Below, in pieces: positions 1-34,440 of a DNA stretch of 64,000 nucleotides (position 1 is its first letter; each line of letters opens with the position of its first letter). The stretch lies in contig JBAZTA010000002.1 of NCBI GenBank assembly GCA_041662125.1, positions 140,154-204,153 of the forward strand. Direction: 5' to 3'. Origin of the DNA: Candidatus Omnitrophota bacterium (GTDB taxonomy: Bacteria > Omnitrophota > Gorgyraeia > Gygaellales > Profunditerraquicolaceae). Both the position numbers and the translations under genes were made by a program. Below the pieces are notes generated by a model, which was not told the DNA's origin, ran no database searches, and saw only the letters and a program-made list of their open reading frames with translations.

Positions 1-30
1 GAACCCGATTTTACCATAAATGGGTTTAAG

Positions 31-3000
31 ATGAGTTCAAAAGGAGAATTGTCTGCAGATGAAGTTGCACTTCAAGATTTAAAGCAGGGTATTATAAGAA
101 TAAAGAGGGAGTATCATAATTTTTTCCAATTGTTCAACACAATGTTAAGAGCTGTTTATTTCAAGAATAAACTGGGGTTTGTTTTTGATGCGCGCTTGGA
201 ATCAATTATAAATGGGCGCAATTGGCAAGAAAGGTTAATCAACCTTATTACTATTCAAATCCCTTATTTCTTTGATAGGGTATTTCATCTGAAATTTGAA
301 CCTTGGGTGACTTGGATGTTGTTTAAGAGTCATGTTAAAAAGACCGAGATAAAGCTTAAAGGTGTATTGAGTAAGGGAGAAAAGACGAGTGCCGGTTCCC
401 CTGTCAGTAATGTTCTGGGAGCTTTAGCAATTAATAGCCAAGGATATGCCCAGACATTTTCTCGATGGATACCTGGTTTAGATATTGTATCTCCTGTGGA
501 TACGGAAAATATTACGGGGTTTGTTCAGTGGTTGAACTGGCATGGTTTTAATCAGTATCATGATGGGTTTGATTTTGCGGCATATAGGAGCGCAGACGGA
601 CTTTGTGCCTTAGGTTTGCCGGCGTATACTCCGGTCAGGGCAGTTGCGAAGGGAACAATCGTCAGCGCTGGCATAGAACAGATGTTTCGTGGTGAAAAGA
701 TGGAAGAACTCATGTATTATTTCCAGATCGTCATTGAACATGGAGAAGAAGATTCCGGCCTGACCTCTACCTATTTACATGTTACGCCAAAATTAAGTAT
801 GTGCAGAGAGGTGATCAAAGGCCAGGTGATAGGATATGTTTATAATGACAACTATGAGCGAAATACTCAGGGTGTATATTTAAATCATTTACATTTCCGG
901 ATCAATAATGGTTTTCGTGATCAACGTAATCTTGTTGATCCAGCGGTAATTCTTCCGGAATTAAATCGTCTGTATTGTCAGCCGCAAGGAGCTGCTCGAT
1001 TTAAAGTAGAAGGTATTGATGGCGAGCCGGTAATCTCCTTGCCGTCTTCAAAGAAGCTCTTGGGAGTCAGGTATGAGCCTCTTACGCATAGATCTGCATC
1101 TGCAGTGTCAGCAATGCTTATGTTGTCTGAAACTTGTAATCCAGAAAGAGTGTTTATCCTTGCGGGAGCTGCCCGCGCTCCGCCGGCTGTGTCTTCATCC
1201 AGCCCCATGATCAAAGCAATGCACGGCCGTTCTAAAACAGGTATTTTTGTCAGCGCTTTTAATCCTCTTACCACCGCAATGGAGGTAATGATGGAAGAAG
1301 CTAGGAAGCAATACGGCCTGGATAAAATAATCCTTATGCTGACGGCCAATCCTCTGTACACAAAAGCCTATGGGACAACACTTGAGCAAAGAAAAGAAAT
1401 GCTTCAGCTGTTTGTCGAAAGCAATCCGCAGTATTCCTATCAGGTAATCAATAAAAGTTTATATGTTGATATCCTCGAAGCTCTTAAAAAGCAACTCCAC
1501 CATGATGATCTGTATGTGATCCTGGGAATGCGTTCGTTTGAGCGTATCCTTTCCTGGGACTATGGCAGTAACCAGGAAGCTTTACCTGCATTGTTTGAGG
1601 GGCATCATTTTCTTATTGCGAATGAGAAGGATTTGCGTTTTGAGGATTTTAAGAATAATTCCTTGTTTTGTCGTACCTATGCCGGCAACCTTCATCCATT
1701 GCATATTGATGAAGAGTATCAAAAACACAGTTCCGCTGAAGTGCGGGTATTTGTCAAAGAAAAAGCTTCTCTTGCAGGGCTTGTTCCGGATGAGATCTTC
1801 CAATATATCCAGCAGAAGGGGATCTATCAAGGTTTTGCCGAATACGCGCAAGGCAGGGTCGCTTTAAGCGGGCAGACGTTTAAGGAATACCTTTTAACTA
1901 TGATGGCATCCTGTAAAAGGATCGATGGCAAAGGTAAGGTTATGGAGCGGGTCAAAGAATTCATCAGAGAGCGTTTAAGCCAGGGTGGTAAGGTTTCTAT
2001 ATTATCCATTGGCTGCGGCCAGGCAATTGACCTGGTTGTTTTAAAAGAGGCATTCCCGGATAATCCGTATATTGAATATTTGGGTATTGATATCAATCCT
2101 GATATTGTTGATGAAGCTCGGCTGGTCGCTTCAGATATGCATTTTATCGTGCGCGATATCATTGAACAGGATATCAGCGATTTAAAGCGGCGTTTTGATG
2201 TGGTCATGGTCACCAATACGCTCCATGAAGTCTATTCATATTATGGCAGGCCTACTCGCCGTGTCGAGGAAAGGATCAATCATGAACTTGGCCTTAGCTA
2301 TGTAAGTCAAGCGTTAGGTAATATTACCCAGATGCTTAAAGCCGCCGGGCATTTGTATGTTTATGACGGCGCGGATACCGCGCGGGATGAGCAATCTGAT
2401 CAGATAGTGATCAGGTTTAAGAAGAGGAATATCAAAGATGCATTCTATACTTTTGCCCATGAATTCCTGCCGAAAGAAGTGCCGTATGAGCAAGTCAATG
2501 GCGATGAGTATATGGTCAGGATATCCAAGAAAGATTTTATGCATTTTGTCTGCGAATATCAATATGTTGGAGACCAGCGGTGGGATATAGAAAAAGAAGA
2601 GAGTTGGCAGTATTTTTCAGTCGAAGAATATGTGACGGTGCTTTCCGGCCTCGGCTTCACGGTGAGTGTGGATAATTTTAGTCCAGAGAGGCAGCTAAAG
2701 TTATGGTCAGAAGACATCGAGATTATTTCGGAAAATGTCGATTTTCCGAGAATAGTATTATTTATTGAGGCAAGCTTAGACAAAAAGCGCAAAATTCAGG
2801 CCATTGATGAACAGGACGCGGCATTTTTGGTGCCGGAAGTAAAATCCAATGACCATAAAGGCAGCCGGGGAAGAGTATTGATTGCCGGAGGTTCGATAGG
2901 GAAATATTTAGGCGCGCTGCAGTTGGCGTCAAAAGCAGCGTTGCAGAGCGGCTCTGGTATGGTATATGCGGGTGTCTTGAAATATCTCTGGAGCATGTTT

Positions 3001-6000
3001 TACGCTAAGTCAGCGGATGAGGTCATGGCCTGCGCGTTGCCGCACCGGAAAGATCATTCGTTTGACCTGCTTTCGGCAGAAGGGCTCTTGCGGGAAGCTT
3101 CTCAAAATAAAATAGACGCGCTCGCTATTGGCCCCGGGCTTATCGTGAAAGAAGAACAGTCCCATGAAATTATGTACCGGTTATTAAGAAATATCCAGGT
3201 TCCTCTGGTTTTGGATGCCGGCGCTCTTAATGCTTTGGCGGGCAAGGCTTCAATTTTACGCAATGCCTGGGGCAGGACGGTCATTACGCCGCATATTGTT
3301 GAAATGGCGCGTTTGAGCGGTATACCTGTGGCAGAAATAATGTCGCGTCGTATTGATGTTGCCAGGGAGTTTGCTTGTGCGTACGGGACAGTGGTGGTGC
3401 TCAAGGGCGATGAAAACGATCGCACGCTTGTCGCATGCCCGGATGGAAGCGTCTATAGTAATTCTACCGGAAATAAATATATGGCAAAAGCCGGGATGGG
3501 GGATGTGCTTACCGGAATTATTGTCAGTTTTATCGGACAAGGTTTGTCTTCCCGTGAAGCAGCCGTATTGGGAGTCTATGTGCACGGGTTGGCAGCAGAT
3601 ATGGTTGTAAGCATCCAGAAGAGAAAAAGAGGGCTTCTCCCGACCCATGTGATAGAACAACTCTCCTTTGCCATCGATAGCCTCTGGGAGCATCGGGAAT
3701 CTTTTGTGCACCGTGATAAGGCCGTGCAGATCACGCCTCATGAGTTCAGAAGGATCGCCGCGGTTTATGGGCTGGAAATCGATAGTGATTCGCTTGATTT
3801 TCAAGGATTGAATAATAAGGTCGCCATACTCGATACGCATAATAAAGGCAAGGTCGTCATTAAGAAATCAGTCTGGGATTTAAAAGGCACGCTGTGGGAG
3901 CAAGAGCTTTTCAATAATTTAGCCAACAGGCAATTGCCTGAAATCATATATACGGAAGAAGGCAATGCCGCATATGTGGAAGCAGATGCTATCTTTACCG
4001 TGTATCGATTTGATTCTTTGGGAAGAATTTATGCATACGAAGAATTGACCGCGGAAATGTTTAAAAGTTTGGCTGAGTTTTTGGCCTGGCTGCATGTTTC
4101 TACCATGGATGGAAGAGTGTTGCATGTGCGAGGGGAAAGGATCACCGATCCTGTGGTTAAGTTCGCAGGCGTTGATGATCGTATGCTGAAATTAGACGAA
4201 GCATACCAGCGTTTTATTGCGAAAAACCCTGCCGGGTGGAACTTCGGGGAGCGTCTTTTTGTAGAGCATCAGCCTTTCTTTAAAGAGCAGATAGCTCTTG
4301 CAATACGTCATTTGGCAGGGATATATGAGCGCCTGCCGCGCGCTGTAATTCATGGGGATTTTCGCGCGGAAAACGTGACCATATCCGGTGATCATATTAG
4401 TAAGGTTCTTGACTGGGAAATTGCCAGAGAAGAAGTAAGGGTTTACGATTTGATCCGCAGCCTTTTCTATGACCTGCATAAATCCGGCGCGGAATTCAAT
4501 ATGGATGAGCTAAAAATCTGGGTGATCCTGTATCAGAAAGCAGCAGAGAAGTTCGGATACCCTTTAACGAGGGAAGAAATAATGATTATTCCTGAAATGC
4601 TGCGGCTGAAATTTATACAGCAGTTTAGTTGGCTGGTGCGATGGAATACCATTGAACGCCTTGAACAAGATCAAAATGAAAGACGGTTTTTTGAAAATTT
4701 GATAAAGGCTGCAAAAGTATTGGATGAGCAGGATTGGCAGAAGTTTTTTGCGGATGTTTTATCCGTGAGCAGGTGGGATCCCCGGAACTGCCTGGAAGAA
4801 TATGATTTCGCCCGGAAGAAAATTAATGAGGTAAACGGTAATATTGAGCATGCGGCTGTTTTGGTTGCGCAATACCGGCAAATAAAGAAACAAGATCGTC
4901 CAATTAAAATAAGCGTTTTTGTCCCTACCGCAAACTGCCTGCATAATGCTCATCAACGCCTCATTGAAGTTGCTCAAGATATACGCTTGCCGGGAGGGGA
5001 TCGTTTTGACGAAACAATAGTATTGCTGGGGACCAAACACGCTGAAAAAGAGGTAAAAGGCATGTCGCTTGAGGATAGGATCCTTACGGTCAAGGCTGTT
5101 TTTGATGAACACAAGGCAGAAGGTACGGCTGGAATCGATAAATTATTTTTAGTCAACACTGGCTGGTATTTGGAGATGGTAGTAGCCTTAAAAGCATATT
5201 ACCGGGAAAACTATTTCCAGGAAATCGAAGTTTATTTTATTATTGGAAAAGATTCGATGCAATCAACGCTTGCAAGTGAATTTGGGAAACTGTTGGAAGA
5301 AAGCTATTTTGTGGTAATGGACAGGCAGGGTTCCCGGATCGAAGATACGCTTGAATATAAAGAATTAGTTAAAGAAAAAGATAAAATCCTTACCCTGCAA
5401 TTTATCCCGAAGCCGGAAGAAGCCGATTTATCTTCGTCTAAGATTCGTCAGATGGTTAAGGATGGATTGTCTGTCGGGCGATTGGTTCCCCTGGCTGTTA
5501 ACGCTTTTATTATTGAGACGGGCGTATATCGTGATAGGGAAATGTATGAAGAGCGCCTGGTAAGGCTGGAGAAGATGCTTGAAGGTAGAAGATTGTTAGC
5601 TTCGTCTTCACCCATTACTTTTAAAGATGTAAATATCCTGGGTGTGGAAGAAGAGAAGTTGGGAATACTGCCGCTTATGTTCTTAAAGCAGAATAAAGGA
5701 AATTATCGGTTCGGTTACCAAATTTCAAATGGGCATGGAAGATATTGGGAAGTCAGGCAGCAGAAGACAGTGCGGTATATAGGTAAAGATATAAGGAGTT
5801 TATTTAAGTCTATAGCGGTTAGGCAGGATATTGAACAGTTCGACGCGGCAGGTAATCGAGAGGAGAAGATCGTGATTGTTTTGCCTACGGTTGGCGATCC
5901 TCTATACAAGCAATGGCTTCAGTCGCAGGTGCAAAGCCTGGGGAATCACTATAGGCTTACCTTTGTAGTTAACCTTAGTTTAAAGGATACTCTTGGCCTG

Positions 6001-9000
6001 AATACCACAAGAATGGGATGGCATTTAGGGAAGATATCGTATGTGCATATTTCTCATCAGGAGATCTATAAGCTGGAATTTCAAAATAGGAATTTGGTCA
6101 GGCCGACCGAATCTTTATATGAATATTTCAAATATCCCTATAGCCGTTATTTAGGAAATAAAGTTACTCAGGAAAATATAATTGACCTGGGGATAGGCGA
6201 GATTTCGATAGTGAGTGCTTTACATAAGGCAATAGAGCCTGTTGCCGATAAGAGGGAGATAGATTTGTTGCGCGATATTATTAAAACAGGCGAGTTTGAG
6301 CAAGTTTATTATATGTTTTCTTATTTATTGGATACCGGTAAGGATGATTATCAATTTCTGGCAAAGCTATACGTATTCTTTGATTATGAGGATTTCTTAG
6401 AGCGTTTTGGAGAGAGAAAAGCGAAAATCCTTCATTCACTCTATTCTGATTATCTTGAAGCTCGCTGGTCCAAGTCCAGCAGCGCGATGCTTACCCGTCG
6501 CCAGTTTATAACGGTCTTAGCAGGGAGTGTGTTATTCGCTGACGTCAGGAATGCCTTTGCCCAAAAGATTATGAAAGGTCTGGAGTTGGGAGAAATAATG
6601 CAAAAAGAGTTTAAAGACTTGGCTTTTGCGGAAGCCGAATATTTAAATTATACCTTTGGGCTTTTTAGTGTCAGTAGAACAGTCCAGGAAAGGATCAAAG
6701 TCATTGCTCCTCTCTATGCTTCCCGGGAAAGGCTCAATTTTGTTAAGGCGGACAATGTTGCCCGGCTGGCAGCTTCTTTAGGATACTATTTTGATGGAAG
6801 AGTCCCTTCTGTTACTATAGCGCTGAACAATCCGCAAACCAAACAGTATTCTTATTTGATTGTGTTCCAGAGCGATCTGTTCGGACAAAATCAGAATCAT
6901 TTCCCGGGGGTGTTGGCGCATGAATTATTTGGGCATGTTTATGACTTTGAAGCAAATCCCCATAAATACAACAATGATATCGCCAAAGCGCTTTCTTTAA
7001 AGAAATATGTTTTGATTTCCGAAGAGTTCGCATATGCTACTGCAGAGGCTATTCTCCAGGAAATCATCGTTAAGTTGAAACAAAAACATGCACAGCTGCC
7101 AAAAGAGCAGAAAATAGCATCATTGGCCGTAATAGAGATATTTGAAGCGGATCTGGCGCAGCATAAAGAAGCTCACCGCTATTGGAAACAAAAAGCATCT
7201 TCGCCGTTTAGCTGTCAACCGCTCATAGTATCTGCCGTCTCGCCTGTAGAAGCTTTCATGCAATTGATGAGTGGAATGCATAAGAAGAAGATAATGCCTT
7301 ACTATGGCAGTGATAATGCTGGTTGGGAAGAGTTTGTGAAGGCTGTAAAGGCGCTCAGAAAAGAGAAAGATATTGATGCTACGGTCATCAGCGGGCCGGA
7401 TTTAGACTGTGATTCTTTTGAGGCGTTCTACGAGTCTATAGGTTATGTTCCTTCTGCAATGTCATTTTTATTAGGAAAGAACGGTAAGATAACTAAAACC
7501 GAAAGAGAAAAAGAATTCCTGCGTTATTGCATAGGCAATATTTATCAGCATGTATCGAAAGGGATAGGATTGATTCTACGGTATGAAACGGCATTAGAAG
7601 GCGGCAGATGCGCAATAATCAGCCTTTCTGATAATGGTGACGGGTTTATTCATGGAGATAGCCAACGGCTGGTGCCTATTAGCGAAGCAATAAGATTTGG
7701 CAAGCGTTTCAGTTTTGGGGCTGGTGGTCATGCGGGCAGAGGATTGCCACTTGCATTGATCCAAGCGGATATATCTGTGATTATTACTCCTCAAGAGGCC
7801 GCAATTATACATCCCAGAAGACGAAAACCCGGTGATACCGGTATGCGAATACTACAGAGCGTTAAGGTGGCCAAAGGCGCATGGCGAGGCACATGTATAT
7901 GCGGCGTTATCTATACGGGGGAAAGTAAAGGCTCCTGCTCGCGGGAGGTGATTTGCACATGGGAAAAATTATTATCTTTTTTAAGTGTTGCCTCCTCGCC
8001 GCTTAGTAAGCCACACAACCAAACCGGTCCTGATTGTTCGCAGATTACCCTCAAGGCTTTATTGTCCGAATTAGATTCTCTACAGATGGCATTAGGATGT
8101 GAAACCTCGTTTAATATCATTCGTATTACGTCTTGGTTGACTTTGCCGCTTGAGGAATTTGTTGCCAACGCTGCACTCCTCGTGAGTAAGATTAAAGGAT
8201 GGGAAGACAAGAAAAAGATTGCTGTCCTTTGGGCCCTACGGGAAGTTGCAGGTGAATTTCCAAGAAGCGATATCGCGCAAGCAAAGAAGTATCTGCAAGG
8301 GAAAACGGAAAAATGCTTAATTGATTTAAGCGATGAGTCCTTGGAGGCGTTGAACAGTGAACTTTCAAGCTCTGGGTGGATTTTTATAAGAAACAGAAAT
8401 CTCGGCAATACTGTAACAGAATTAATGCCTCAGGCTCAATGTATGGTAGATAAGGCAATCAGACAGTTGATAGGAGATGATGAATATGAACGGCTTTTTG
8501 GATTCTTAGGCAGATACGATGATATTGTTGCGAAGTCGCGTAGAGTAATCACCTTGAGTCAAGAGATTCAACAAATTTTAAGGAGCATATCACAACCCTG
8601 TTCTTCGCCGCAGGCGCAAGGGCAAAATGTAAGTATTGATGAGGACAGATTAGAGTCTTTTATGAGCAGCTTGATTTGTTCAGGAAAATCGTTTAGCCTC
8701 GTGACTTCGCCAAAAGTAATTGAACAAATGAATATCTGGGATTTCCCCTATCTCAACACGCTCTTAGAGCAGCATATTCAGGTAGGGCAGGTACAGCAGG
8801 ATTACCTAGAGCCGCACTACCTAAAAATAAAAAAGCAGCAGCCGGAGTTGATTATAGGGATTGGTATGGGATCGGTGATCGAATGGGCCAAGTTATTAGG
8901 CCATAAATTAGATAAAAATGTGATCGTTATCCCTAGCGCCGTCTCCACAAATGCTATGTTTACCCGCTCTGTTATCATAGGGAATGGTGCAGGTGATTCT

Positions 9001-12000
9001 TTTACGAGGACGACTATCCCGGCAAAAGCGCCGTCAAAAGTTATTATAGATACGAGGTTCGCAAGTTTAAACCGTCGGGGAAATATCAGCGGTGCCGGTA
9101 ATTTATTTGGCAATAGGATTGATTTAGTTGATTGGGATCTGGCAATAAAGTACGGGCAGGAAAGCGATACTCAACAAGAACACAGGGATAGAGTTCGCCG
9201 GCAGATGAATTTAATCGAAGATATACTTTGGCATGACGATGAGGCTATCAGCGCCAATACCAGACATGGGGTTAGCCAACTGACGGAACTTAATTGTTGG
9301 CTTTCAGGTTTGACGCAGGAAGTTAATCCCCATGGCCCTGATGGCACAAGTATAAGGATCCTTTTCGATTCAATAAAGAGGCAATCGCCCAATATAAAAC
9401 TTATTCACGGGGAAGGAGTAGCAATAGCTACGATACTCATGGCTTATTTGTATAACTTAGATTATAGAATGTTTATTACTGATGCGCAGCGTTTGGGGTT
9501 ACCTGTGGCTATCAAGGATATTGGCCTTACTCGGGAATCTTTGGTTCTTAGTTTGCTAACGGCTAAGCCTGACAAGCGGGGGTTCTCGTGGTTTAACAAT
9601 AATTCTATACAGGAAGAACAAGCAAGGCGGGTCATTGATGCGGTATTCGGCGCAAATTTAACATCAGGGAAAGTAGGTAAGATACGACCGCATTATTCTT
9701 GGAGAGGCAGGGAAGAGGATATCCCTGCGTTAAGTGGAGGGCCTCATCAGCGCGCCGAAATAATTGCTGGTTACCTTAGTGAACAAGGTATTTATTCTGA
9801 CCCTAAAGCGGAGTTACCGTCAAGGCAAGAATTAATGAAAATCATCAATACTGCAAGCTTAGCAATGAATTGTAATAGCGAAAAAGGCATGTTAGGGCGG
9901 AATATAAATGAGATTACGGCTGAATGTTTATTCAGGGAGGGGCATGTTATTTTTATTCCTAAATTAGATGAGTTTGCTTGCATTATGAGCGATGTTCAAG
10001 GGGACCTCCTTTCTCTTAATAGCCTGTTAGAGCAAGCAGGGTTTGTTCATAACATGGAAAGCGGGAAAAAGAACATAAGATTGATAGCACTGGGTGATTA
10101 TATTGACGGCGGTATTAATAATCTGGGAGTCTTAGTGAGGCTGATGGAATTAAAAATAAAATATCCCGAGCATGTTATCCTGTTAAGGGGTAATCACGAA
10201 TCGCGGAATGACCGGGAAGCTGTTAAACATTTCCCTGCTTATGAAAGGGATAGATTCAGGCGCCTTAACCAGAGCAAAATGTTAAGAGAGTTAGGGTATG
10301 TTAAATCGCAATCATATCTTATTTTTGAATTAATCGCGCGATACGGAGCGCAAGACGCAGATAAAATCTACGGCTCTCTCCTCAATTTGTTTAAACAATT
10401 GCCTACGCTTGCGGTAACCGCCACAAGGTTGGTTATGGCCCATGGCAATGCCCCTAACGAAGACAACGTGAGCCTTATCGACATTGCATATAATGATAAA
10501 ATCGCCAAGCAAATACGGGTTAATTCTTTCTGGGGCGATAAAGATTCTCCTAATGAACGTTTAACCGGCAGTTCGTATAAGATTAGAAAAAAAGGCTTTG
10601 AGAATTTTTTGCGGCGCATCGGGGGAAAGATATTCATTGGCGGGCATGTGTCTAAGGAGTCAGGCAACATTCAATGCGACGGCAAAATGATTGTGATCCA
10701 TTCGCAGAATAATCTGGCCAGCCGCGACAGCGGTTACTATTTCTTCCGTCAGGGCATTGGTAAAGGTTGTTATATCTGGCTCCCGTTAAATATTTCTTAT
10801 GATTTGTTCCCGCAGGAAGCTTTAAGGATCATGCCGTCGTCTAGTAATTCTTTAGCATTAACCTGCGCCTCACCGCTGGCTTTAAGAAATAACGAAAATG
10901 AAATCACCTGTTTTTCTATCTACGAAACTATTATGCCTAGTTTTACTCTTAATTTGGATCAATTTAAACATAATCTAAAGAGGGCATCTTTAGGAAAATT
11001 TATTTTTGTAAAACAGCTTAGCCATAACACCTGGCTAATGCGTGGCATTGACAATAAAAAGCGGTTGACCATAAAGATAATTACTCCGAGTATGACAAAA
11101 AAGGCTGGCTGCTTAAGGAATATTAAAGATACTAAGAGAATTATAAATATTATAGACAAATGGGATCCTCCCCATAAAATGCTTGCTCAAGGATTTTACA
11201 TAACAGATCGCGAAGGGAGTTTAGCGGTAGTTTCTCGTTATGTCATAGGCGTTGATCTGCAAGAATTCTTGACAGAAGGTCGTAGAAAATTTAATAATCC
11301 GGAATTATATGTTAAGTGGAGTGTGCAAGTTGCAAAAAAAATATTGCCGCAGGTGCGTGATTCGGTTAGTTATTTATATAGGGAGATACCTGGCCTGAAA
11401 GTATTTGATGCTGCGCCGTCAAATCTTATTGTTTCTAGTCAAGGTGTTACTTGGCTGTTAGACGTATTTATGCTTAATACAAGGAATAACGACGAAACCA
11501 CTGCTGTAATTGAAGTTAATCATATGATTGATTTGATAGCCAGAATTATAGCAAAAGAATTTGAACCATTTAAAATTGAAAAGATGATAGAAGCATATTT
11601 GATTTATGGCTATCCGTATCTAGACGATATTTGTGATTTAATTAAAAAGCAATGTGCCTCTCCGCTTGCGCAGAATGTCTTGAATGTATGGTCGCAATTG
11701 AAGCGTTTCCTGATACCTGAGAACAAAATAAGCAGATATCAGCCACTCGAAATTAAGCTCGATGGAATAGTAGGGCAAAATATTGATAATCCTTTGGTGT
11801 ATCATCAAAGGCTGGAATTTTTGCGGGCGGAGAGGATAAATTTATTAAGAAATCTAATATGCTACGAGTTAATAGTTGAACTTGGCCATGGAGGGAATCC
11901 AAACCTTTATGAAGATATCCGCAGAGTAGGTTTCCAGGGTTCTTATTCCGCGTTAGATTACTTTCCCTTTAATCAAAGGTGTCCTCTTAAAGGATTCCCC

Positions 12001-15000
12001 CATGTAGAAATTGACGTAAGAAACGCAGGCGCCGTAAACGAAATAATTGGTAAGTTACCAGCAGCAATAGTTTCAAATAATTTCTTGAGGCATTTAGGTG
12101 CGCACTATGCGCAAGGAATATGCTCACGAGATAATGCTTATATGGTGGCAGAGCTTTTACACAGTTACAACGCAGATCTACACATGCATGTAGGAGGGAT
12201 CCCTTCGGATGAAGCGGAGAGAAATAGCCGTTTTGCTGTACAAGACCAGATGGAATATATAAATTACATGAATCAAATACCGGAAGCATTAATAAAAAAA
12301 GGGTGGAGAGTTATCTTCCTGGAACATCATGGATATCGCGACTGGGTGTTTATCCGAGACGGCAGCTATATCAGTAGTGTCATGGCTGAATGGTTTAAGA
12401 ATATAATAAGTAGTGAGGATAAAATCAAGATAAGTCCCAATGCCTGTGGCGGCACTGCAGCCTCGCCGCTGGCAGAAAGGCTGCGTCACCATGCATTTGT
12501 CAGGCAGTTAGGGGGGGAAGCCATTACTTTTCTTGTTTCTTTATTGAAAAGGCCATCCAGCGAATTCGTAGCAGACGACCTGTTATCTGCCTTTAAAACT
12601 TTTAATAGTAATAAAAAAATAAAAATAATTAAATTAAGCGGAGAACCTTCCGAGTTAGCTGGAAAGCTTGAAGAATATTTAAATGGCAGTAGCGATACAT
12701 TGGTTCTCGTCGAACTTAAATTGGAATTCTTATATCATATTGAATATGCAGTGATAATTGATGAGGCGCGTTACATAAAATCACAATTAAACAAAATTAC
12801 GAAAGGGAGTGTGAGTAATTATGATTTTGAATTTGTCTTTTCAGCGGCGGTTTTCGAAAGATATGTTAATTTTGACTATATTTCTTTAGGCCGCACCCCG
12901 GAGGTTGTTGCGCGATTACGGGAAAAACATTTGATGTCAAAGACGTTTAAGAAAATTGTGGTTTTCCTTGAAAACAGGCACTTGAATAACAAGGTCAGGT
13001 TTTCTATAGCCAAAGGAAACTCTTTAATGGAGCACTGGGCAAAGAAATACTTCAGCGCAGAATGCATAGTGCCTAGTGAAAATCTTCAATACTGGGAAGG
13101 AATTATCGGAGCCCGCGCCTTATCCTCATCGCCGCTGATTTTTAGTCGAAACTCTTCATCTTCAATAGGGTTAAATAGGGGCAGCCCCAGGATTATACAG
13201 AAAAGAATTATGCCGAATATATTATCTTATAGGGCTGTATTTACGCTTCTGACTCCTTGTATTTGGACATTGGCTGGGTTAGCTTTGCTGCCTTATTCTT
13301 TTGCCAGGCAATTAGTTCTCATTCCTGTGGCTGTAGTCATTGTTAGTTATAGCGCAACTGCTTCTTTATTCTGGCTTATCAGAATATTCCGCTATCGAAA
13401 TTTGTCCTGGAAGGCAAAAGAAAGCTTTGCCAGGGTATTTATGCATCTGCGTATTTTTAACATATTCTTAGGCGCCGCTTTATTATTGCTTATAGGTTTA
13501 AATATTGCTGATGCCAAGCTTCCCAAATGCCTGCATTTAACCGGTACTGTGCAGTGGGGTTTTTCATTGTGGGCTGTTGTTGATATAGTACAGCATTTTA
13601 TTTATAAAATGGTCGGCGGAGTAAGAGGTTTACGCGATGAGATGCTTTGGAATATTGTATTATCAGTTTTAGGTAAACCTTATGATTTCAGCCGTCCAAA
13701 GGGAGGGACTGTTGGAAGAGAGTTGTCAAAATTAATCGAACGGATAAATAAACGTGAAATTTGTGCTTCTTCGCCGCTGGACGGCCAAGCAATTTTATTA
13801 AAAACCTGGCAGCAGGTAGCCAATGTTGGTGATTTAGACCAGATAAGGGCAATGGATATATTTGGATTTGCCCGCGCGTTAGGCGCTAAGGAAATGCAAC
13901 CGAAAAGATTTGATTCACTCCGTAGCCTGTGTGGACTATCCGTGACCCCGGCTTTGGTATGCATTTCAATTGAGGCTTGGCATCGTATCAGGGGAGATAG
14001 GATTGCCGAAGGGTTGAAAGAAAAACATTATGACATCCTTATTAGAAATCTATCACGCATACCGCAGATAGATGGCCCAGGACTGTATTATCGTAAAAAG
14101 GGAGTTCAAAACTATCCCAAGAGCGCTTTTGTGCATGAACTCCTGGAATTCAACGTTATAAATTCAGGATTAATAAACAGTAACTTTTATAATTTCTTAG
14201 GAAACTCCCATCAGATAGTGTTAGAAGGAGAATTGCGATTTGCCAGGCTTATCGGCATCCATGAATTCAGCCTAAGCCTTGAAAACATGCAGAAAAGGAT
14301 AGATACGTTAAAGGACGTTATATCTCAGTATTCTATTATTGAAGCAAAAAGAGAAATACTACGCATTAGCCTGGAGATTAAAAGTTTAATAAACAGTTCA
14401 TATACAGATGATTTTTTGAAGTCTTCTTTAGAGTTATGGCATCAAGCAAGGAAGACGGCCTCTTCCCCGCTGGCGTATGGAGTAGGGTTACGCAGCCTTT
14501 TCTTAGGGAAAAAGCTCCCTCTGCGGCATGAGCGCTTTGCCTATTGCCAGATAAAAGAAATTTACCGGAATTTATATCCGGAATTATCCGCTCAAGCTGT
14601 AGAAAGATTTCTTTCTCGCATCAGTTTGGGTGAATTTTCAATGGTTCATTTCTTTGGAAGGATACCGCTGGTGGGAATTATGTTTTATGTCTTTTCGCGC
14701 GTTGTGGTATGTTTGGTAGCTGCATTGTTTGCCGCGGGGGTTTTTTCTGTGGTGCAAACGTGCGGGATCGGGCAAGCCCTGTCGCATCTGGATATCGATC
14801 TTTTGTCATTTAAGGAGAAATTCATTTTCGGGATTATTGCCTCAACCGCGCTCTTAAAACCCTTAACCAGTGATGTCCGCGAATTCGCCAAGACCCTCCG
14901 TAAGGCCAAAGGCATATGCATTATCGACCCTGTTGGAACAGCGACTATTTTATTCAGGCCTCAGCGTAAAGCCAAACTGTCATTTGATCTTTCACCAGTT

Positions 15001-17406: not shown

Positions 17407-18092
17407 CAAGGTGGCATATCAATAAAGATTGTAAAATAAAGCTGGAAGGGGCTTTAGCATATGCTGATGCTCAGGTTAAGGATGTTAATTTTAAAGGAGG
17501 AAGTATTTCTTTAAAAAAACATTTAGTGCTGGATAAATTCTTAAAAATGCATATAATAATTTCTGAGGGGTTCTCTTTTGAAGCAGAGCTTTGGATCATC
17601 TGGCAGAAGCGAATTGCTGACACTACCGTTTATGGCTTTTGTTTCAAAACCCTTAAGGACCAGGATAAGGAGCAGTTATATAAATTTATCCGCAACCAAT
17701 ATCCCGGGCAGCTCAACCGGCAATGGTGGAGAGAGGATATTAAAAAAGGAGGAGGTACTGTTATGCACGATGAGAGTTTCGATGATAAAAGGATTTTTGA
17801 GCGGTTTTCGGTTAGTTTATCGTTAAAACTGTTAGCGTTAGATTCCAATATGGAAGATGCCGCGCAGGTGCAGGATATTAGTGCTAAAGGATTGGGTTTA
17901 GTGACAAGAGGCTGGTACCCTCCTCATACGCCGCTTGAGATGTGGCTTTCTGTTCCTGACCAGGGGCAGCCGCTTTATACCCGAGGTTCTGTATCATGGT
18001 CAAATCTGGAAGGCCCTGATAATTTCAGGACAGGCGTTGAATTAGAAAAAGCTGATTTAATGGGAGTTTCTCGAGTCTTGAGGGCGGTGTAA
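17385..18092 (+). CDS. tandem PilZ-domain protein (c-di-GMP receptor-like)
   Basis: Two PilZ signatures are present: RRHLTRW...DVNFKGGSISL and RIFERFSVSL...QDISAKGLGL. An SD (aggtgagg) lies 7 nt upstream. The start overlaps the giant ORF stop by 22 nt. Confidence 0.7.
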   Translation: MEERRHLTRWHINKDCKIKLEGALAYADAQVKDVNFKGGSISLKKHLVLDKFLKMHIIISEGFSFEAELWIIWQKRIADTTVYGFCFKTLKDQDKEQLYKFIRNQYPGQLNRQWWREDIKKGGGTVMHDESFDDKRIFERFSVSLSLKLLALDSNMEDAAQVQDISAKGLGLVTRGWYPPHTPLEMWLSVPDQGQPLYTRGSVSWSNLEGPDNFRTGVELEKADLMGVSRVLRAV

Positions 18093-20300: not shown

Positions 20301-21413
20301 TTAGGTTACGGCTCTTTTGCGGTAAATACGGCAGTTGGCGTTAACTTCTTCAAATATCTCTTTTGCTTCCGGCCACATGGTTTCGGTGAGCCCCATAACC
20401 AGGTAGCCGCCCGGTTTTAATGAATTGAAGAATTTCATGAGAAGCTGGTCCTGGAGGCTGCGCGTAAAATAAATAAATACATTGCGGCAGAAGACAATGT
20501 CGGTGTTTCTGATATAGTCGGAGGCAATGAGATCCAGTGGTTTAAATGATACCATGTTTTTGATCTCATCTTTTAATTTCCAGCTGTTGAGTTGCGGTGT
20601 GAAATGCGCTTTAAGGTATTCGCTCTTTAGGTTTTTTAACGCTGTTTTAGGATAATCTGCTTTAAAAGAGGCGCGCAGCGCTTTTGGGTCAAGGTCTGTA
20701 GCGGTTATTTCCAGATTGACCTTAGCGCCTGATTGTTTTAATAATTCGTTGAGCAGTATGGCTAATGAGTATGGTTCTTCCCCGTATGCGCAGGCAGCAG
20801 ACCAAATACATAATTTATTATCAGTCTTGCCGGTTTTTTGTTGAATGAGGTCTTTAATGATCGGAGTCATTGCTTCCCAGACCGGCGGGTCGCGAAAAAA
20901 CTCGGAAACATTAATGCAGAGGACTTCGAATAATTTGTCATACTCGTGCGGGTTATTGATGAGGTACATCAGGTAATCTGAAAGCGAAGTTAATTTATTC
21001 ATGTTCATGCGCATGGCGATGCGCCGTTTGATCAGGTCAGAATGATAGTGATGGAAATCCAGCCCTCTGTCTTGATAGATTTTATCCAGGACTAACTGAA
21101 AGGTTTGTTCCTTGTTTTCTTTTACCTGGTGGCGGGGGCTTTTGCTTATAATATCAATGGCGGCGATTGTCGCTCGCCCGACTTCTGCTTCTTTTTCAAG
21201 TTTGGTTTGTTCGATGATGGTGTGGAGGGCTCCTAATTCAGTGGTCACATACTTAGCTGGTACGCGGGATAAGACGTATGCGAGCATATCGTTCTTGCAT
21301 GCGCTGCATCTGCAGATATCAATCCGGGTTGATAGCGCGCTATTCAGGAAATCGACCGCGATATCTTCAATGATGTTGCGTAATTTGTCAGCCATAGAAA
21401 AAGTATAACACAA
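20301..21413 (-). CDS. CheR-type protein-glutamate O-methyltransferase with an N-terminal Cys-containing domain
   Basis: CheR SAM-binding block LCIWSAACAYGEEPYSLAILL and VFCRNVFIYF are present. The N-terminus contains CRCSAC. Confidence 0.7.
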   Translation of the reverse strand: MCYTFSMADKLRNIIEDIAVDFLNSALSTRIDICRCSACKNDMLAYVLSRVPAKYVTTELGALHTIIEQTKLEKEAEVGRATIAAIDIISKSPRHQVKENKEQTFQLVLDKIYQDRGLDFHHYHSDLIKRRIAMRMNMNKLTSLSDYLMYLINNPHEYDKLFEVLCINVSEFFRDPPVWEAMTPIIKDLIQQKTGKTDNKLCIWSAACAYGEEPYSLAILLNELLKQSGAKVNLEITATDLDPKALRASFKADYPKTALKNLKSEYLKAHFTPQLNSWKLKDEIKNMVSFKPLDLIASDYIRNTDIVFCRNVFIYFTRSLQDQLLMKFFNSLKPGGYLVMGLTETMWPEAKEIFEEVNANCRIYRKRAVT

Positions 21414-22459: not shown

Positions 22460-22520
22460 AATTGGTATATCCGGCGTCTCTGTGAAAGATGTTCCGGATA
22501 TCTATGCAGGAGATACGGTT

Positions 22521-22946
22521 ATGGGGAGTGATTATTCAGGTTCGGAGCGGCGCAGGGGTAAGCGTGTCAGAGTGAGCCTTTCGGTGATTTATCGAATTAA
22601 TGAGCCTTTGGCAGTGCGGCTTTTAACCGCGAATAAGGAAATCAAGGCGACCATGATTGATTTAAGCAAGAGCGGGATGGCGATCTTTACTGACTATGAA
22701 ATCCCGGTAAATACCGTCTTAATGATACGTTTTACTTTGTTTAAGGTTGAGAAAGATGATGTTAGTTTTTACGGGCCGGTTGAAATAACCGGTGAAATAA
22801 AATATTGCGTAAAAGAAGTTGATGAATGCCGTTTAGGGGTCCAATTTATCTCTATCTCCGATAAAGACAAGCAGGAGATAGAGAATTTCGCTGCTATGGC
22901 GATCAATCTCACCAAGAAGAATCCTCAGCAAGACCCGATGTCCTGA
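22521..22946 (+). CDS. PilZ-domain protein
   Basis: ERRRGKRVRVS (RxxxR) and DLSKSGMAI (DxSxxG) are present. An AGGAG SD lies 9 nt before the ATG at 22521. A GTG at 22482 is the alternative start. Confidence 0.65.
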   Translation: MGSDYSGSERRRGKRVRVSLSVIYRINEPLAVRLLTANKEIKATMIDLSKSGMAIFTDYEIPVNTVLMIRFTLFKVEKDDVSFYGPVEITGEIKYCVKEVDECRLGVQFISISDKDKQEIENFAAMAINLTKKNPQQDPMS

Positions 22947-23996: not shown

Positions 23997-24353
23997 ATGC
24001 AAGAACGTAGAAATAAAATAAGGATTAATGCGTCTTTAGTAGTCAGTTATCGTTTGCTGAATACTGTTTTTAAGACCGCTTCCCGCAGCAAAAACATTTC
24101 AGTGACAGGGATATGCCTGCCTTTTCCTCAGAGGCTGGAGCCGGGAAGATTCCTCGATTTGGAAATTCAGTTGCTTGATTTTAGCGACCCCATCAAGATC
24201 ACCGGTAAGGTCATTTGGATTAAAGCAATCAGCTCCGCGGAATTTCCTTTTCAGGTGGGGATTGAGTTTGTTACCATAAACCCCGTCGATCAGGATAAAT
24301 TATTTAAGCATATCTTTAAAGAAGGGACTCCGGGGATAGAGATGCTTCCCTAG
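23997..24353 (+). CDS. PilZ-domain protein
   Basis: ERRNKIRIN (RxxxR) and KNISVTGICL (DxSxxG-like) are present, and the size is typical of a single PilZ domain. Confidence 0.65.
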   Translation: MQERRNKIRINASLVVSYRLLNTVFKTASRSKNISVTGICLPFPQRLEPGRFLDLEIQLLDFSDPIKITGKVIWIKAISSAEFPFQVGIEFVTINPVDQDKLFKHIFKEGTPGIEMLP

Positions 24354-25901: not shown

Positions 25902-26185
25902 TGCGGCAACCCCTGTCTGTTAATGACGGCAAGGGAAGGGATATGCAAGCCAAAGGCCGCTGGTTCTCCGGAAGACGTCTGGAGATAAATGAAACAATAA
26001 GAAAAAGAGTGTTTGTTGTAGTATTAAGTATATAATGAATGAGTGTCCTGCCTAACGTAAGAACTTGTTTTTTGTGAGCTAAAGGTTTTATATGAAAGCT
26101 AAAAGGCTGTCTTGGTGTGCATCGATTTTGTCTTCTTTTGGGGAAAGAAATATCTTGCATTGTAGTAATCAGGGGAACTTATGCG

Positions 26186-29100
26186 ATGAAAATAAAAAAG
26201 GTTGACCATAAAAGGAAATTAATCTCTCAAAATAAGAATAATGCTACGGTTAAGGTGGCACCTGTTTCGGGGGAAGGTTTGAATAATTCTTGCGAAAACA
26301 GTTTTCCTGTTGTCGGCATTGGGGCGTCGGCAGGCGGGCTGGCGGCATTCGAGGCTTTCTTTTCTGCCATACCCGTTGATCAGAATATGAGGATGGCTTT
26401 TGTCTTGGTGCAACATTTAGCACCGGACCATAAGAGTATCTTGAGTGATCTGATTAGGCGTTACACTCGGATGCAGGTCTTTGAAGTGGAGGATGGGATG
26501 GTGGTGAGGCAAAACTGCGTTTACATCATTCCGCCAAACCGGGATATGGCTTTATTAAATGGGCATCTACAGTTATTAGAGAAAGATGTTTCTCGAGGCC
26601 ACGGTTTGTCTATTGACTTTTTCTTTCGTTCCCTGGCCCAGGATCAGCACGAGCGGGCTATTGGCATTATTCTTTCCGGCACAGGCAGCGATGGCGTTAT
26701 GGGTGTGCGGGCGATCAAGGGCGAGGGCGGCATGGTGTTAACGCAGAAGCCCGAATCCACTGAGTACGATGGTATGCCTCGCAGCGCTATCGCTACCGGC
26801 CTCATGGATTATGTGCTGTTGCCTGCAGAGATGCCTTTACAGCTTCTGGTTTACGCAAGGCATGCGTTCGGGCAAAAAGCATTTTTTTCCTCTATTGGAA
26901 CTCTCAAGGCTGAAGATGCGCTTAAAAAGATATTCATTATCCTGCGCGACAAGTCCGGGCACGATTTTTCTCAATATAAGCCAATTACTATTAGCCGGCG
27001 TATCGAAAGGCGTATGGCTGTTCATCAGATCAATCGGCTGGAGGATTATGTGCGCTATTTGCAGAAAACTCCGGTTGAGGTTGAGGCTCTCTTTTATGAT
27101 CTCTTGATCGGCGTTACAAGCTTTTTCCGGGACCCTGAGGTTTTTAATACGCTTGAGGCCCAGGTTATCCCGCGCCTTTTTGCCGATAAGCCCGCAGGCT
27201 CAGTGATCCGTGTTTGGGTCCCGGGATGTTCTACGGGTGAAGAGGCCTATTCCCTTGCCATTTTACTGCAGGAAAAGATGGAAGAGCTTAAGCAGTCCTT
27301 TAGGTTACAGGTGTTTGCCTCTGATATTGACTCTCGTGCCATTGCGCAGGCTCGCAGGGGTGTTTATCCTTCCAGCATTGCCGCGGATGTTTCTCCCCAG
27401 CGTTTGGCGCGGTTTTTCATCAGTGATCGGGCGGGTACTACCTTTAGCGTCCACAAAAACATTCGTGATGTAATGGTTTTTTCCGAACACGATCTGATTA
27501 AAGATCCGCCGTTCTCTAAGCTCGACCTGATCAGCTGCCGCAACCTATTAATCTATATGGGAGGGGAGCTGCAGAAAAAGATTATTTTATTATTTCATTA
27601 TGCTTTAAATCCTGCGGGGATCCTTTTGTTGGGTACGTCAGAAACCGTGAGTGAGTCGTTGATGAAATTCTTTAATGTAATGGATCGTAAGGCAAAGATG
27701 TATGAGCGCTGTGAGGACAGTATAAAGGTACCCCGTTTGAGCATGTCCAAGGCTTTTTCGCCGATGAGGCCATGCGGGGCGGAGGTTGCCTTTTTAGCTC
27801 AGGAATCCGGCGAGAATAAACTTCACCTGCGCGAGCTCATGGAACGGACGATACTGCAACAATACGCTTGCGTCGGCTTGCTCGTTAATGACCGCGGCGA
27901 CATTTTGTATATTCATGGCCGTACGGGCCGGTATCTCGAGCCGTCTCCCGGTGAGTCGGTGATGAATATCCTGAGAATGGCGCGCGAAGGATTGCAGCCG
28001 GAATTGAGTGTTGCCTTGTGTAAAGCCGTTAAGCAGCACAAGGTCGTTTGCTGCAAGGGCTTGCGGGTTAAAACGAACGGCAATTTTAGCATCGTCAATG
28101 TAACCGTGCGGCCGGCAATAAAAACTTTTGACACGGCGGCTGAACCGCGGTTGTTCATGGTCATTCTGGAAGAGTCCCTTATTGAAAAGCCAGAGCTTCT
28201 TAAGAAGGGCAAAGATATCCAGGGCCGTAATCGCGGGGGAAAAAGCTCCTACCGCGCTGATGCGCGTATCAAGGCGCTCGAGCGGCAATTGCAGGTAACC
28301 AAGGAGCATCTTCAATCGACCTTGGAGGAAATGCAGGTTTCCGGCGAAGAGCTTAGGTCTTCCAATGAGGAACTGCAGTCTCTCAACGAAGAAATGCAAT
28401 CCACGAACGAGGAAATGGAAACCGCAAAGGAGGAATTGCAATCTGTTAATGAGGAATTGAGTACAGTCAATTGCGAACTGCAGACCAAGGTAGCTGAGTT
28501 GTCGCGGGTCAATAATGATATGAATAACCTGATATCGGGCATCGGCATAGGGACCATTTTTGTGGATCATCAATTGCGTATTCAGCGCTTTACTCCTGCC
28601 GTTACCCAGGTCATTAATCTGATCTCGACCGATGTGGGGCGATCCGTGGGGCATATTGTTTCGAACCTGGTGGGTTATGATTGCTTGGTCGCGGATATCC
28701 AGTCCGTGCTGGACACGCTGCTTCCTCAAGAAACTCAAGTTCAGAGCAAATCTGGTGTGTGGTATCAGCTCAACATTCGGCCCTATCGCACACTCGAGAA
28801 CATGATCGAGGGCGCGGTGATCACCTTTGTTGATATTTCTCAGATGAAGCAGGCAGACGAGGCGCTGCGCAGGGCCAATAATGATTTGTCCCGGCTGGCT
28901 ACGGTAGTACGCGACTCCTACGATGCCATAACGGTACAAGATTTAGAGGGCCGCATATTGGCCTGGAATCAGGCGGCAGTGAAGCTGTACGGTTGGGCCG
29001 AAGCCGAAGCCTTGTCCATGAATATCTCTGACCTGATTCCAAAGAGCAAGCTTCAGGATGAGGCTGCCATAGTTAAGAAATTGCGCCAGTGTGAGATCAT

Positions 29101-29230
29101 AGCGCCGTACCGTACGCAGAGGCTCGCCAAAAACGGCCGGATCATTGAAGTATTGCTTACCGTGAACACTTTGGTCAATGAGGCCGGGAAGGTATATGCC
29201 TTAGCGACTACTGAAAAAGAAGTGAAATAG
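26186..29230 (+). CDS. CheB methylesterase-CheR methyltransferase fusion protein with a coiled coil and PAS domains
   Basis: The CheB block is VVGIGASAGGL...VLVQHL. The CheR block is VWVPGCSTGEEAYSLAILL. A heptad-repeat coiled coil (EELRSSNEELQSLNEEMQS...) is followed by a PAS-like C-terminus. The start is placed at ATG 26186 after an aggggaa SD. Confidence 0.8.
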   Translation: MKIKKVDHKRKLISQNKNNATVKVAPVSGEGLNNSCENSFPVVGIGASAGGLAAFEAFFSAIPVDQNMRMAFVLVQHLAPDHKSILSDLIRRYTRMQVFEVEDGMVVRQNCVYIIPPNRDMALLNGHLQLLEKDVSRGHGLSIDFFFRSLAQDQHERAIGIILSGTGSDGVMGVRAIKGEGGMVLTQKPESTEYDGMPRSAIATGLMDYVLLPAEMPLQLLVYARHAFGQKAFFSSIGTLKAEDALKKIFIILRDKSGHDFSQYKPITISRRIERRMAVHQINRLEDYVRYLQKTPVEVEALFYDLLIGVTSFFRDPEVFNTLEAQVIPRLFADKPAGSVIRVWVPGCSTGEEAYSLAILLQEKMEELKQSFRLQVFASDIDSRAIAQARRGVYPSSIAADVSPQRLARFFISDRAGTTFSVHKNIRDVMVFSEHDLIKDPPFSKLDLISCRNLLIYMGGELQKKIILLFHYALNPAGILLLGTSETVSESLMKFFNVMDRKAKMYERCEDSIKVPRLSMSKAFSPMRPCGAEVAFLAQESGENKLHLRELMERTILQQYACVGLLVNDRGDILYIHGRTGRYLEPSPGESVMNILRMAREGLQPELSVALCKAVKQHKVVCCKGLRVKTNGNFSIVNVTVRPAIKTFDTAAEPRLFMVILEESLIEKPELLKKGKDIQGRNRGGKSSYRADARIKALERQLQVTKEHLQSTLEEMQVSGEELRSSNEELQSLNEEMQSTNEEMETAKEELQSVNEELSTVNCELQTKVAELSRVNNDMNNLISGIGIGTIFVDHQLRIQRFTPAVTQVINLISTDVGRSVGHIVSNLVGYDCLVADIQSVLDTLLPQETQVQSKSGVWYQLNIRPYRTLENMIEGAVITFVDISQMKQADEALRRANNDLSRLATVVRDSYDAITVQDLEGRILAWNQAAVKLYGWAEAEALSMNISDLIPKSKLQDEAAIVKKLRQCEIIAPYRTQRLAKNGRIIEVLLTVNTLVNEAGKVYALATTEKEVK

Positions 29231-34412: not shown

Positions 34413-34440
34413 TAAAGCTTAAGAATCCGATTTAAAATAT

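Follow-up and report, generated by a model that had tools for sequence, protein, structure and literature searches.

The giant open reading frame and its junction peptide

We analysed a stretch of 64,000 nucleotides (the window) from contig JBAZTA010000002.1 of a Candidatus Omnitrophota bacterium, in which the first 17.4 kb are taken up by a giant open reading frame (ORF; 1..17406, plus strand, as are all features within it). One frame is free of stop codons over this distance; its first ATG lies at nt 31, and the ORF is listed as nt 31-17406, encoding 5,791 aa. Amino acid positions given here are those of the ORF starting at nt 31. Nucleotides 1-30 (GAA CCC GAT TTT ACC ATA AAT GGG TTT AAG) contain neither an in-frame stop codon nor a ribosome-binding site; the ORF, open at the 5' window edge, therefore runs past that edge, and the protein has at least 5,791 aa. 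The protein collection that holds the neighbouring proteins has no entry with exactly this sequence, which fits a gene start upstream of the window. The neighbours (NCBI MFA62166xx) are annotated as products of a Candidatus Omnitrophota metagenome-assembled genome (MAG), and the relatives described below all come from Omnitrophota-type MAGs.

A first-pass annotation had described a giant multi-domain protein at nt 1230-10750. This interval is an internal slice of the ORF and excludes the M23 peptidase domain (nt 613-909) with which its own domain series began. The series itself was borne out by profile searches (Pfam, NCBIfam), which recovered the folds in the order given, none of them in low-complexity sequence. 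In total, the ORF is tiled by nine distinct domain types, none dominant, and self-BLAST gave no off-diagonal match that would indicate internal repeats or duplication. The region aa 3600-5791 is almost entirely without Pfam recognition. The giant ORF strings about 16 unrelated cassettes in a row (enzymes, membrane segments and Pfam-unrecognised units) and is not one integrated enzyme.

Neighbouring cassettes are joined by a junction peptide with the consensus [SAGT]-[SA]-S-P-[LVIM] and occasional Pro-to-Ala or Pro-to-Ser variants. The first junction, SSSPM (1195..1209, aa 389-393), forms the upstream edge of cassette M1, and SSSPI (5602..5616, aa 1858-1862) forms its downstream edge; homology to the relatives P0008 and P0009 starts exactly at the latter. 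Next come a degenerate junction, SSSAM (6475..6489, aa 2149-2153), which is a hybrid of two junctions of the close relative L007, and ASSPF (7195..7209, aa 2389), right after which similarity to L007 stops. They are followed by ASSPL (7990..8004, aa 2654), CSSPQ (8599..8613, aa 2857) and two copies of CASPL (10864..10878, aa 3612; 11653..11667, aa 3875). Collinearity with L007 restarts at AASPL (12457..12471, aa 4143); SSSPL (13123..13137, aa 4365) precedes cassette M9, and similarity to L007 stops again right after ASSPL (13765..13779, aa 4579). Downstream of another ASSPL (14458..14472, aa 4810), collinearity restarts about 10 aa before SSSPL (15670..15684, aa 5214). AASPI (16207..16221, aa 5393) and SASPI (16711..16725, aa 5561) mark the upstream and downstream edges of cassette M13, which L007 is without, and a variant junction kept in L007, ASSAI (17272..17286, aa 5748), lies 39 aa before the stop codon.

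All 14 [AS]SP strings in the giant ORF sit in the context [ASTC]-[AS]-S-P-[LIMFQ]. The core [AS]SP[LIMF] occurs 13 times against 0.63 expected, a count reached in none of 20,000 shuffles; the window's 42 other proteins (13,931 aa) lack it. Among junctions of the ORF, information is confined to five residues, and the sequences on either side show no relation to each other. The junction codons vary freely within the ORF (TCA, TCC, AGC, TCT, TCG, AGT and others); the junction is thus not a DNA repeat. An unbiased ranking of k-mers placed SSP, SSPL or SSPV at the top in the window ORF and five relatives. When 13 giant-ORF fragments (59,985 aa) were pooled, 140 motif cores were counted against 21.8 expected, with information again limited to five positions and with a median junction spacing of 247 aa (interquartile range 137-530).

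An exhaustive HMMER search with aa 1820-2900 as the query returned 37 relatives, among which motif density was bimodal: seven carried the motif at 15-140 times expectation (about one per 180-470 aa), P0009 had two copies, P0016 had one, and the remainder had none. Nine motif-bearing proteins were looked up and proved to be fragments of large ORFs, seven in annotated Omnitrophota MAGs and two (P0013 and P0015) without a phylum name. Other strings recur elsewhere. D.AM[IL]A[DE] occurs six times in P0029 of Ca. Zapsychrus exili (aa 370, 829, 1120, 1618, 2016 and 2250), [DN]GG seven times in P0012 (aa 13-1684) and VSDT six times in the ORF of locus L015 (aa 393-2992); these three ORFs are without SSP, and their strings recur at cassette-like spacing. 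A GHKL-like cassette related to M3 of the window ORF is bracketed by D.AM[IL]A[DE] in P0029 and by [DN]GG in P0012. The distribution of these strings suggests that junctions are lineage-specific.

Cassettes as units of gain and loss

Homology blocks shared with relatives have the motif at their ends in either partner. The GHKL-like cassette extends over aa 2390..2655 in the window ORF, 404..680 in P0024, 1170..1449 in P0022 and 2200..2434 in P0042; in these three relatives it has junctions on both sides, and P0015 shows the downstream junction only. Its alignments were too diverse to seed a DNA scan. Cassette M2a begins at aa 1858 in the window ORF, at residue 3 in P0008 and at 2764 in P0009.

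L007 is about 79% identical to the window ORF and collinear with it in four blocks: window aa 381-2393 with L007 aa 3326-5369, 4135-4586 with 5380-5832, 5205-5404 with 6063-6262, and 5567-5769 with 6253-6456. Neither M3-M7 (1,754 aa, including the cassette with the G1PDH-like and phosphatase domains) nor M13 is found in the visible part of L007 (at least 8,135 aa). In place of M10-M11, L007 has other sequence; at the position of M0, which carries the M23 domain, it has more than 3,300 aa of other upstream sequence, and it extends about 1,700 aa past the point where the window ORF stops. At the end of the first block, '...YWKQK-ASSPF' in the window faces '...SWKQK-ASSPL' in L007, and at the end of the second, '...RINKREIC-ASSPL' faces '...RINKREIR-ASSPL'; in both cases similarity continues through the pentapeptide and then stops. 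At the other block edges, no more than about 10 residues separate the restart of similarity from a junction. L007 is cleanly without M13 and has a single junction, AASAL, at that point. The degenerate SSSAM of the window corresponds to 'SSSPV-26 aa-ASSAM' in L007, a deletion with its crossover inside the motif.

At nine orthologous junctions, the encoded amino acid had changed in 3 of 45 codons; in the flanks, it had changed in 98 of 270 (Fisher p = 2e-5). Junctions and flanks were alike in the frequency of synonymous differences (16/42 and 53/172). Few amino acid changes combined with a flank-like synonymous rate indicate selection on the peptide and not on the DNA. On the strength of these alignments, the cassettes are independent evolutionary units that are gained, lost and reordered at junctions.

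Scans of reference genomes and metagenomes with cassette M1 returned 16 locus records, which amount to about 13 distinct loci. M1 is embedded in locus-spanning ORFs in L006, L007, L009, L012, L016/L021, L018 and L020, several of at least 8,100 aa and open at both ends. Its upstream edge is a junction in all eight giant contexts (these seven and the window); its downstream edge is visible in seven, six of which have the motif and one (L020) the variant ASSL, the edge in L006 lying beyond the locus. In each of these giants that was examined, M1 has different neighbours. Embedded in the L007 ORF are CoaB/DFP (260 bits), an Rce1-like intramembrane protease, PIG-L and GT2 (aa 156-344, 771-867, 1434-1567 and 1911-2001), and in the L009 ORF (aa 88-273 and downstream) an MFS transporter, which is also present in P0009, and a B12-binding radical SAM (S-adenosylmethionine) enzyme. 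L006 (CAZPNW010000031.1) is labelled 'uncultured Planctomycetales'; its M1 is 87% identical to that of the window and has a different upstream cassette. The contig is probably a mis-binned or mislabelled piece of an Omnitrophota genome.

In other Omnitrophota, M1 stands alone. A search with M1 found proteins of 1,336-1,599 aa with the same five domains, at 45-49% identity and 82-99% coverage. M1 is a separate gene (1,336-1,600 aa) in L008, L010, L011, L013 and L014. Each of the four intact copies begins with a hydrophobic leader of the signal type, after which comes [ST/C]-L-S-P; all five copies end in '...[EG]QAI' and are without the junction motif.

Free-standing homologues of the cassettes (L003 1605-18447; P0016-P0041, P0051-P0055) share an N-terminus with a signal-peptide-like leader, in which an AxA-type site (AWA or VWA) is followed by [ST]L[SA]P... 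or LR[VI]P..., and many of them end in '...[EG]Q[AS]I'. A MAFFT alignment places the giant's junction SSSP opposite the leader's CLSP. Neither the leaders nor the '...EQAI' tails of these homologues gave a match to any curated sorting-signal model. In L003, the free-standing gene belongs to a row of five large genes, all with similar leaders and '...EQ[AS]I' ends, and two of the five hold a domain homologous to cassette M10. Going by this gene content, the giant ORF looks like a fused version of gene clusters that other lineages encode.

Cassette contents and the surrounding genes

Cassette M1 (1210..5601; 1,469 aa between the junctions at aa 389 and aa 1858, without an internal junction) contains five domains. 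They are a first NadD-like domain that has lost HxGH (1222-1830, aa 398-600; TIGR00482, 1e-31), a class I SAM methyltransferase (1972-2367, aa 648-779; several Pfam methyltransferase models), a YjeF_C or NAD(P)HX dehydratase domain (2806-3669, aa 926-1213; TIGR00196), an APH kinase with HGDFRAEN and DWE (3874-4497, aa 1282-1489; 4e-10) and a CTP_transf_like, second NadD-like domain that keeps HNAH (4927-5451, aa 1633-1807). The value of 1e-13 for PF01467 is one over both NadD-like domains together.

The YjeF_C domain scored 163.4 bits with TIGR00196 (cut-off 129.85) and 123 bits in its match to TM0922, with GMGDVLTG aligned to GSGDVLTG of that protein; G769, D770, V771, L772 and G774 are invariant in the family. 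The first NadD-like domain, at 110.1 bits, lies below its cut-off of 112.45 and has FNPLTTAM opposite FNPVHLAH. HxGH is absent from it in all five family members that cover the region (FNP[LI]T..[MI], both His lost), and the domain may be a pseudo-enzyme or a binding domain. The second keeps HNAH and SSSKIR (ISSxxIR), and its match to NadD is weak; neither of the two combines the NadD motif with a score above the cut-off. They are distant paralogues with 25% identity (BLAST against L006). The nearest solved relative of the APH kinase is homoserine kinase 2ppq (E = 2e-4).

The M1 unit is conserved over 17 sequences at 41-87% identity. In a six-sequence alignment SIGCxQ of the methyltransferase, G-x-GDVL-x-G of YjeF_C and HGD...EN plus D of the APH kinase are invariant, and HxxH of the second NadD-like domain is kept in all five aligned sequences that reach it. 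M1 (aa 389-1857) is a true conserved five-domain fusion. Its two NadD-type folds, NnrD-type dehydratase, small-molecule kinase and methyltransferase point to the chemistry of pyridine nucleotides or related phospho-metabolites, and M1 most likely acts on a metabolite of the pyridine-nucleotide type by adenylylation, ATP/ADP-dependent dehydration or repair, phosphorylation and methylation. Like NnrD, the YjeF_C domain scores above the curated cut-off and has GxGDVLxG; unlike NnrD and NadD, it is fused in M1 with a methyltransferase, an APH kinase and an HxGH-less NadD paralogue, and the intact free-standing homologues bear a leader. The signal-type leaders, unexpected for ATP-dependent enzymes, and the predatory or parasitic lifestyle proposed for Omnitrophota leave room for an exported, effector-like role of M1, which is speculation. 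The first-pass idea of a nucleotide or NAD factory is fair for this five-domain unit and not for the whole chain; its other intuition, of a polymorphic, effector-like protein, fits the cassette swapping and the hydrophobic leaders of the free-standing homologues.

In cassette M0, the Peptidase_M23 domain (613..909, aa 195-293; E 1e-7) has both HxxxD and HxH, readable as YHDGFDF and NHLHF. No other protease can be recognised in the visible ORF. The domain has no sequence match in the Protein Data Bank (PDB) at E <= 0.01.

Downstream of M1, cassette M2a (5617..6474, aa 1863-2148) has an alpha/beta fold without a Pfam match. Its AlphaFold2 (AF2) model is moderately confident (pLDDT 70-87), and that of M2b (6490..7194) is poor. 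Foldseek gave no significant PDB match that would identify the fold of M2a or M2b (best E = 0.03); likeness of M2a to EEP/Nocturnin-type phosphatases or to GNAT was weak, non-significant and not to be trusted. M2b carries HELFGH (aa 2296), the HExxH site of the first-pass annotation. The string is kept in L007, and two distant relatives have HELxGN there (HELFGN in P0014, HELCGN in P0023). HExxH is thus not a conserved zincin metalloprotease site, and the region has no Pfam peptidase match. Downstream of the SSSAM junction (window 6475-6570, aa 2149-2180) lies a string resembling a signal for twin-arginine translocation (Tat), LTRRQFITVLAG...AFA. Twin-arginine-like strings stand right after a junction as SSSAM-LTRRQFITVLAGSVLFADVRNAFA in the window ORF and as ASSPL-DITRRLFFKTLFIVASILVFDRLGFAQA in P0024 (aa 5-45).

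M3 (7282..7953) is a divergent GHKL/HATPase_c-like cassette. M5 holds two domains. The first (8668..9639, aa 2880-3203) is like glycerol-1-phosphate dehydrogenase (G1PDH) and iron-containing alcohol dehydrogenase (Fe-ADH), with 1e-22 and a match to PDB 5fb3 at 1e-13; its earlier label, DHQS-like, was broadly right, as this family belongs to the DHQS-like superfamily. The second is a metallophosphatase of the phosphoprotein phosphatase (PPP) type (9982..10650, aa 3318-3540; Metallophos, 2e-12). The Metallophos fold scores 48 bits against a cut-off of 21.5, and PP1 and calcineurin match at about 2e-8. The Arg-to-Gly substitution in motif II (GDYIDGG) and the intact GNHE had been read correctly; motif I had been mis-registered, and SDVQG, not GDLLS, aligns with GDVHG (Asp kept, His replaced by Gln). 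The signature GDxHG plus GDxVDRG is therefore lacking, with only GNHE complete. The cassette after the CASPL junction at aa 3612 gave a faint protein-kinase-like match, and M9 has three to four hydrophobic helices. M10 (13780..14457) has its homologues in the L003 cluster, as the C-terminal domains of two free-standing proteins. Word-indexed homologue searches (queries aa 1-5000 and aa 3612-4578) returned nothing, the C-terminal cassettes having no relatives that such a search detects, and a scan of reference genomes with aa 1858-5791 returned no close relatives.

Genes elsewhere in the window include those for MnmE, FolE, CheR, three PilZ proteins, AccA, an RND pump and KAS enzymes. The three PilZ-domain genes lie 3' of the giant ORF (17385-18092, 22482-22946 and 23997-24353), the first overlapping its last 22 nt. 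A ComFB-CheR gene (20301-21413, minus strand) and a large ORF (26117-29230), which by eye and outside the Pfam run resembles a CheB/CheR-PAS fusion, are also found downstream, and this neighbourhood looks like one for signalling of the cyclic di-GMP or chemotaxis type. Window positions 31204-37914 and 40440-42095 encode a sulfatase-family protein (Pfam) and several polytopic membrane proteins without a Pfam match; by eye, this run of genes looks like a cell-envelope modification cluster.

A possible cellular polyprotein

We infer, with a probability of about 0.5, that the giant ORF encodes a polyprotein that is cut at the junctions. The ORF would be translated as one polyprotein, a site-specific endopeptidase would cut at or beside the junction peptide, and the cassettes would be released as individual proteins, following the logic of viral polyproteins or of the effector arrays of MARTX, the multifunctional autoprocessing repeats-in-toxin toxins of Vibrio and related bacteria. 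A conserved short site with unconserved flanks at the boundaries of viable units is a hallmark of polyprotein cleavage sites, and both elements, independently viable units within one ORF and such a site at their boundaries, are found here. Embedding of units that are normally separate proteins (the MFS transporter in P0009/L009 and CoaB/DFP in L007) argues for the same reading. An AF2 model places all three junctions in coil of low confidence at the ends of helices, with a confident fold beginning right after the first. The different strings around the same GHKL-like cassette in other lineages are what co-evolution of site and protease would produce; GG is the specificity classically assigned to C39 peptidases. 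The intact M23 domain of M0 would be a candidate protease, only because M23 family enzymes cleave between small residues.

Cleavage at the junctions is predicted from sequence patterns, and several points weigh against it. The SSP-type giants L007 and L009 gave, in their visible parts, no sign of a shared protease: M23 occurs only in the window ORF and not in visible L007/L009, and L007 has the Rce1-like domain. Pfam and NCBIfam detected no C39 or S8 domain in the visible window ORF. Segments resembling signal peptides or transmembrane (TM) helices followed 9 of 133 junctions, against a background of 4.3% (p = 0.12), which is no significant enrichment. The Tat-like 'RRQF + hydrophobic' string after SSSAM was rejected as proof of a new N-terminus because it is internal (about residue 68) in the free-standing P0014. 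Classical signal peptidase I would be unable to cut where a Pro comes right after a small-x-small site, and we know of no protease specificity that fits the junction motif. The relatives are all MAG fragments, and the window truncates the ORF.

A wider version of the polyprotein reading is that the junction pentapeptide and the D.AM[IL]A[DE], [DN]GG and VSDT strings are all sites of dedicated endopeptidases and that the Omnitrophota giants are cellular polyproteins evolving by cassette exchange. We hold this tentatively, as a little less probable than cleavage of the window ORF itself. If true, gene clusters would be fused into one frame, translated once and cut into dozens of ordinary proteins, so that a gene organisation otherwise known from viruses would serve a large share of a bacterial proteome.

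The chief alternative, which we think rather unlikely, is an uncleaved, tethered and membrane-anchored mega-enzyme, in which the junction would be a conserved hinge or short linear motif (a site for a chaperone, an isomerase or Ser-Pro phosphorylation, or a translocation pause) and not a cut site. The failure to find a shared protease agrees with it, TM cassettes could anchor the chain, the ORF itself has kinase-like and phosphatase cassettes, and the position of the junctions in flexible coil is no less suited to a hinge; published accounts take most of these giants for single chains anchored in the membrane. However, passive linkers are not normally conserved in sequence, whereas here five residues are under strong purifying selection while their flanks diverge. 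Quite different strings around the same cassette in other lineages are hard to reconcile with a generic hinge. The giants also embed polytopic transporters and oligomeric housekeeping enzymes, and the same units function as separate proteins elsewhere.

On the reading of the first-pass annotation, the protein would be one working unit, a single-chain machine for NAD or nucleotide metabolism and signalling in which a kinase opposes a phosphatase or pseudo-phosphatase. All its folds are real, and the five domains of M1 are fused and conserved together, but as an account of the whole chain it is improbable. The kinase lies in M1 and the phosphatase in M5, that is, in different junction-bounded cassettes; M3-M7 are missing from the visible part of L007 despite about 79% identity; and the same cassettes are found elsewhere as separate genes and in different orders, M1 with different neighbours in each giant examined. 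The 'opposition' of kinase and phosphatase is an accident of cassette neighbourhood, and the two are independent units. The NAD-related five-domain M1, by comparison, is a genuine and conserved enzyme.

Still less probable is that the junction is mainly a recombination signal or shuffling scar at the DNA level, with the peptide incidental. Breakpoints between the window and L007 do fall on junctions or within about 10 residues of them, one deletion having its crossover inside the motif. The codon comparison largely refutes this explanation: codons vary freely among junctions of the ORF, the synonymous rate (16/42) equals that of the flanks while amino acid change is five times rarer than there, and the motif persists at 41-49% protein identity, where nucleotide identity is not expected. 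An artefact of assembly or gene calling (a chimeric contig, missed stops or frameshifts) has a negligible chance, since, although the sequence is MAG-derived and the exact protein is missing from the collection (as expected for a gene starting upstream), 17.4 kb run without a stop in one frame, the architecture recurs in independent assemblies (L007 = L017 from NCBI and JGI, L016 = L021, plus L009, L018 and L020), and invariant catalytic residues show purifying selection.

Giant ORFs are known in Omnitrophota (Seymour et al. 2023, PMC10066038; West-Roberts et al. 2023, bioRxiv 10.1101/2023.11.21.568195). At 10,000 to nearly 150,000 codons they are a signature of the phylum; the literature poses as an open question whether each works as one protein or is divided, and the lack of known cleavage points is said to block the analysis (West-Roberts et al. 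2023). The junction peptide gives exact candidate termini that can be sought in existing proteomic data, offers a rule by which giants can be divided before structure prediction and annotation, and explains how giant ORFs grow and vary, namely by gain and loss of whole cassettes. What seems new here is the junction peptide and the cassette-precise evolution; neither the peptide nor cassette-precise insertions and deletions turned up in keyword searches of the two main giant-gene papers or in related literature searches.

The class itself is known already. A 'multi-enzyme metabolic cluster' class of giant ORFs has been described in Omnitrophota, in a survey with a threshold of 10 kaa (bioRxiv 10.64898/2026.06.07.730766), and the window ORF belongs to this described class of giant multi-enzyme ORFs, contrary to the earlier remark that no protein of such a kind had been described. 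The two agree in phylum, in a long ORF tiled by methyltransferase, HATPase_c-like, kinase, phosphatase and peptidase domains with scattered TM helices, and in poor conservation with large Pfam-unrecognised stretches. In length, at least 5,791 aa are visible here (5' open) against the 10-kaa survey threshold, and relatives reach at least 8,100 aa. C39 domains are reported to be common in such giants (West-Roberts et al. 2023). Archaeovorins (West-Roberts et al. 2023) are defined by glycosyltransferase, glycosyl hydrolase, NUDIX, C39 or S8 peptidase and SecA-related domains, none of which is in the visible 5,791 aa; in this visible part, only the methyltransferase and the M23 peptidase are shared with them.

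Like MARTX, the window ORF would be a giant bacterial protein with unrelated enzyme modules, which in MARTX are reshuffled between strains and released by cleavage at short sites in unstructured linkers. Unlike MARTX, it has no RTX or glycine-rich repeats, cysteine protease domain or type I secretion signal (Pfam, NCBIfam), its motif differs, and cleavage is only predicted. With the polyproteins of picorna-, poty- and nidoviruses it shares many units per ORF, a short boundary peptide, unconserved flanks and lineage-specific sites; it differs in lying on a cellular chromosome, in comprising metabolic enzymes and transporters instead of replication proteins, and in having only a candidate protease. 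No CdiA or Rhs domain was detected in the giant ORF. In polymorphic toxins (VENN in CdiA, DPxG in Rhs), a short peptide likewise stands at the point of module exchange and is a possible processing site, but theirs is one junction before a single C-terminal toxin, whereas here about 16 junctions per visible ORF stand between all units.

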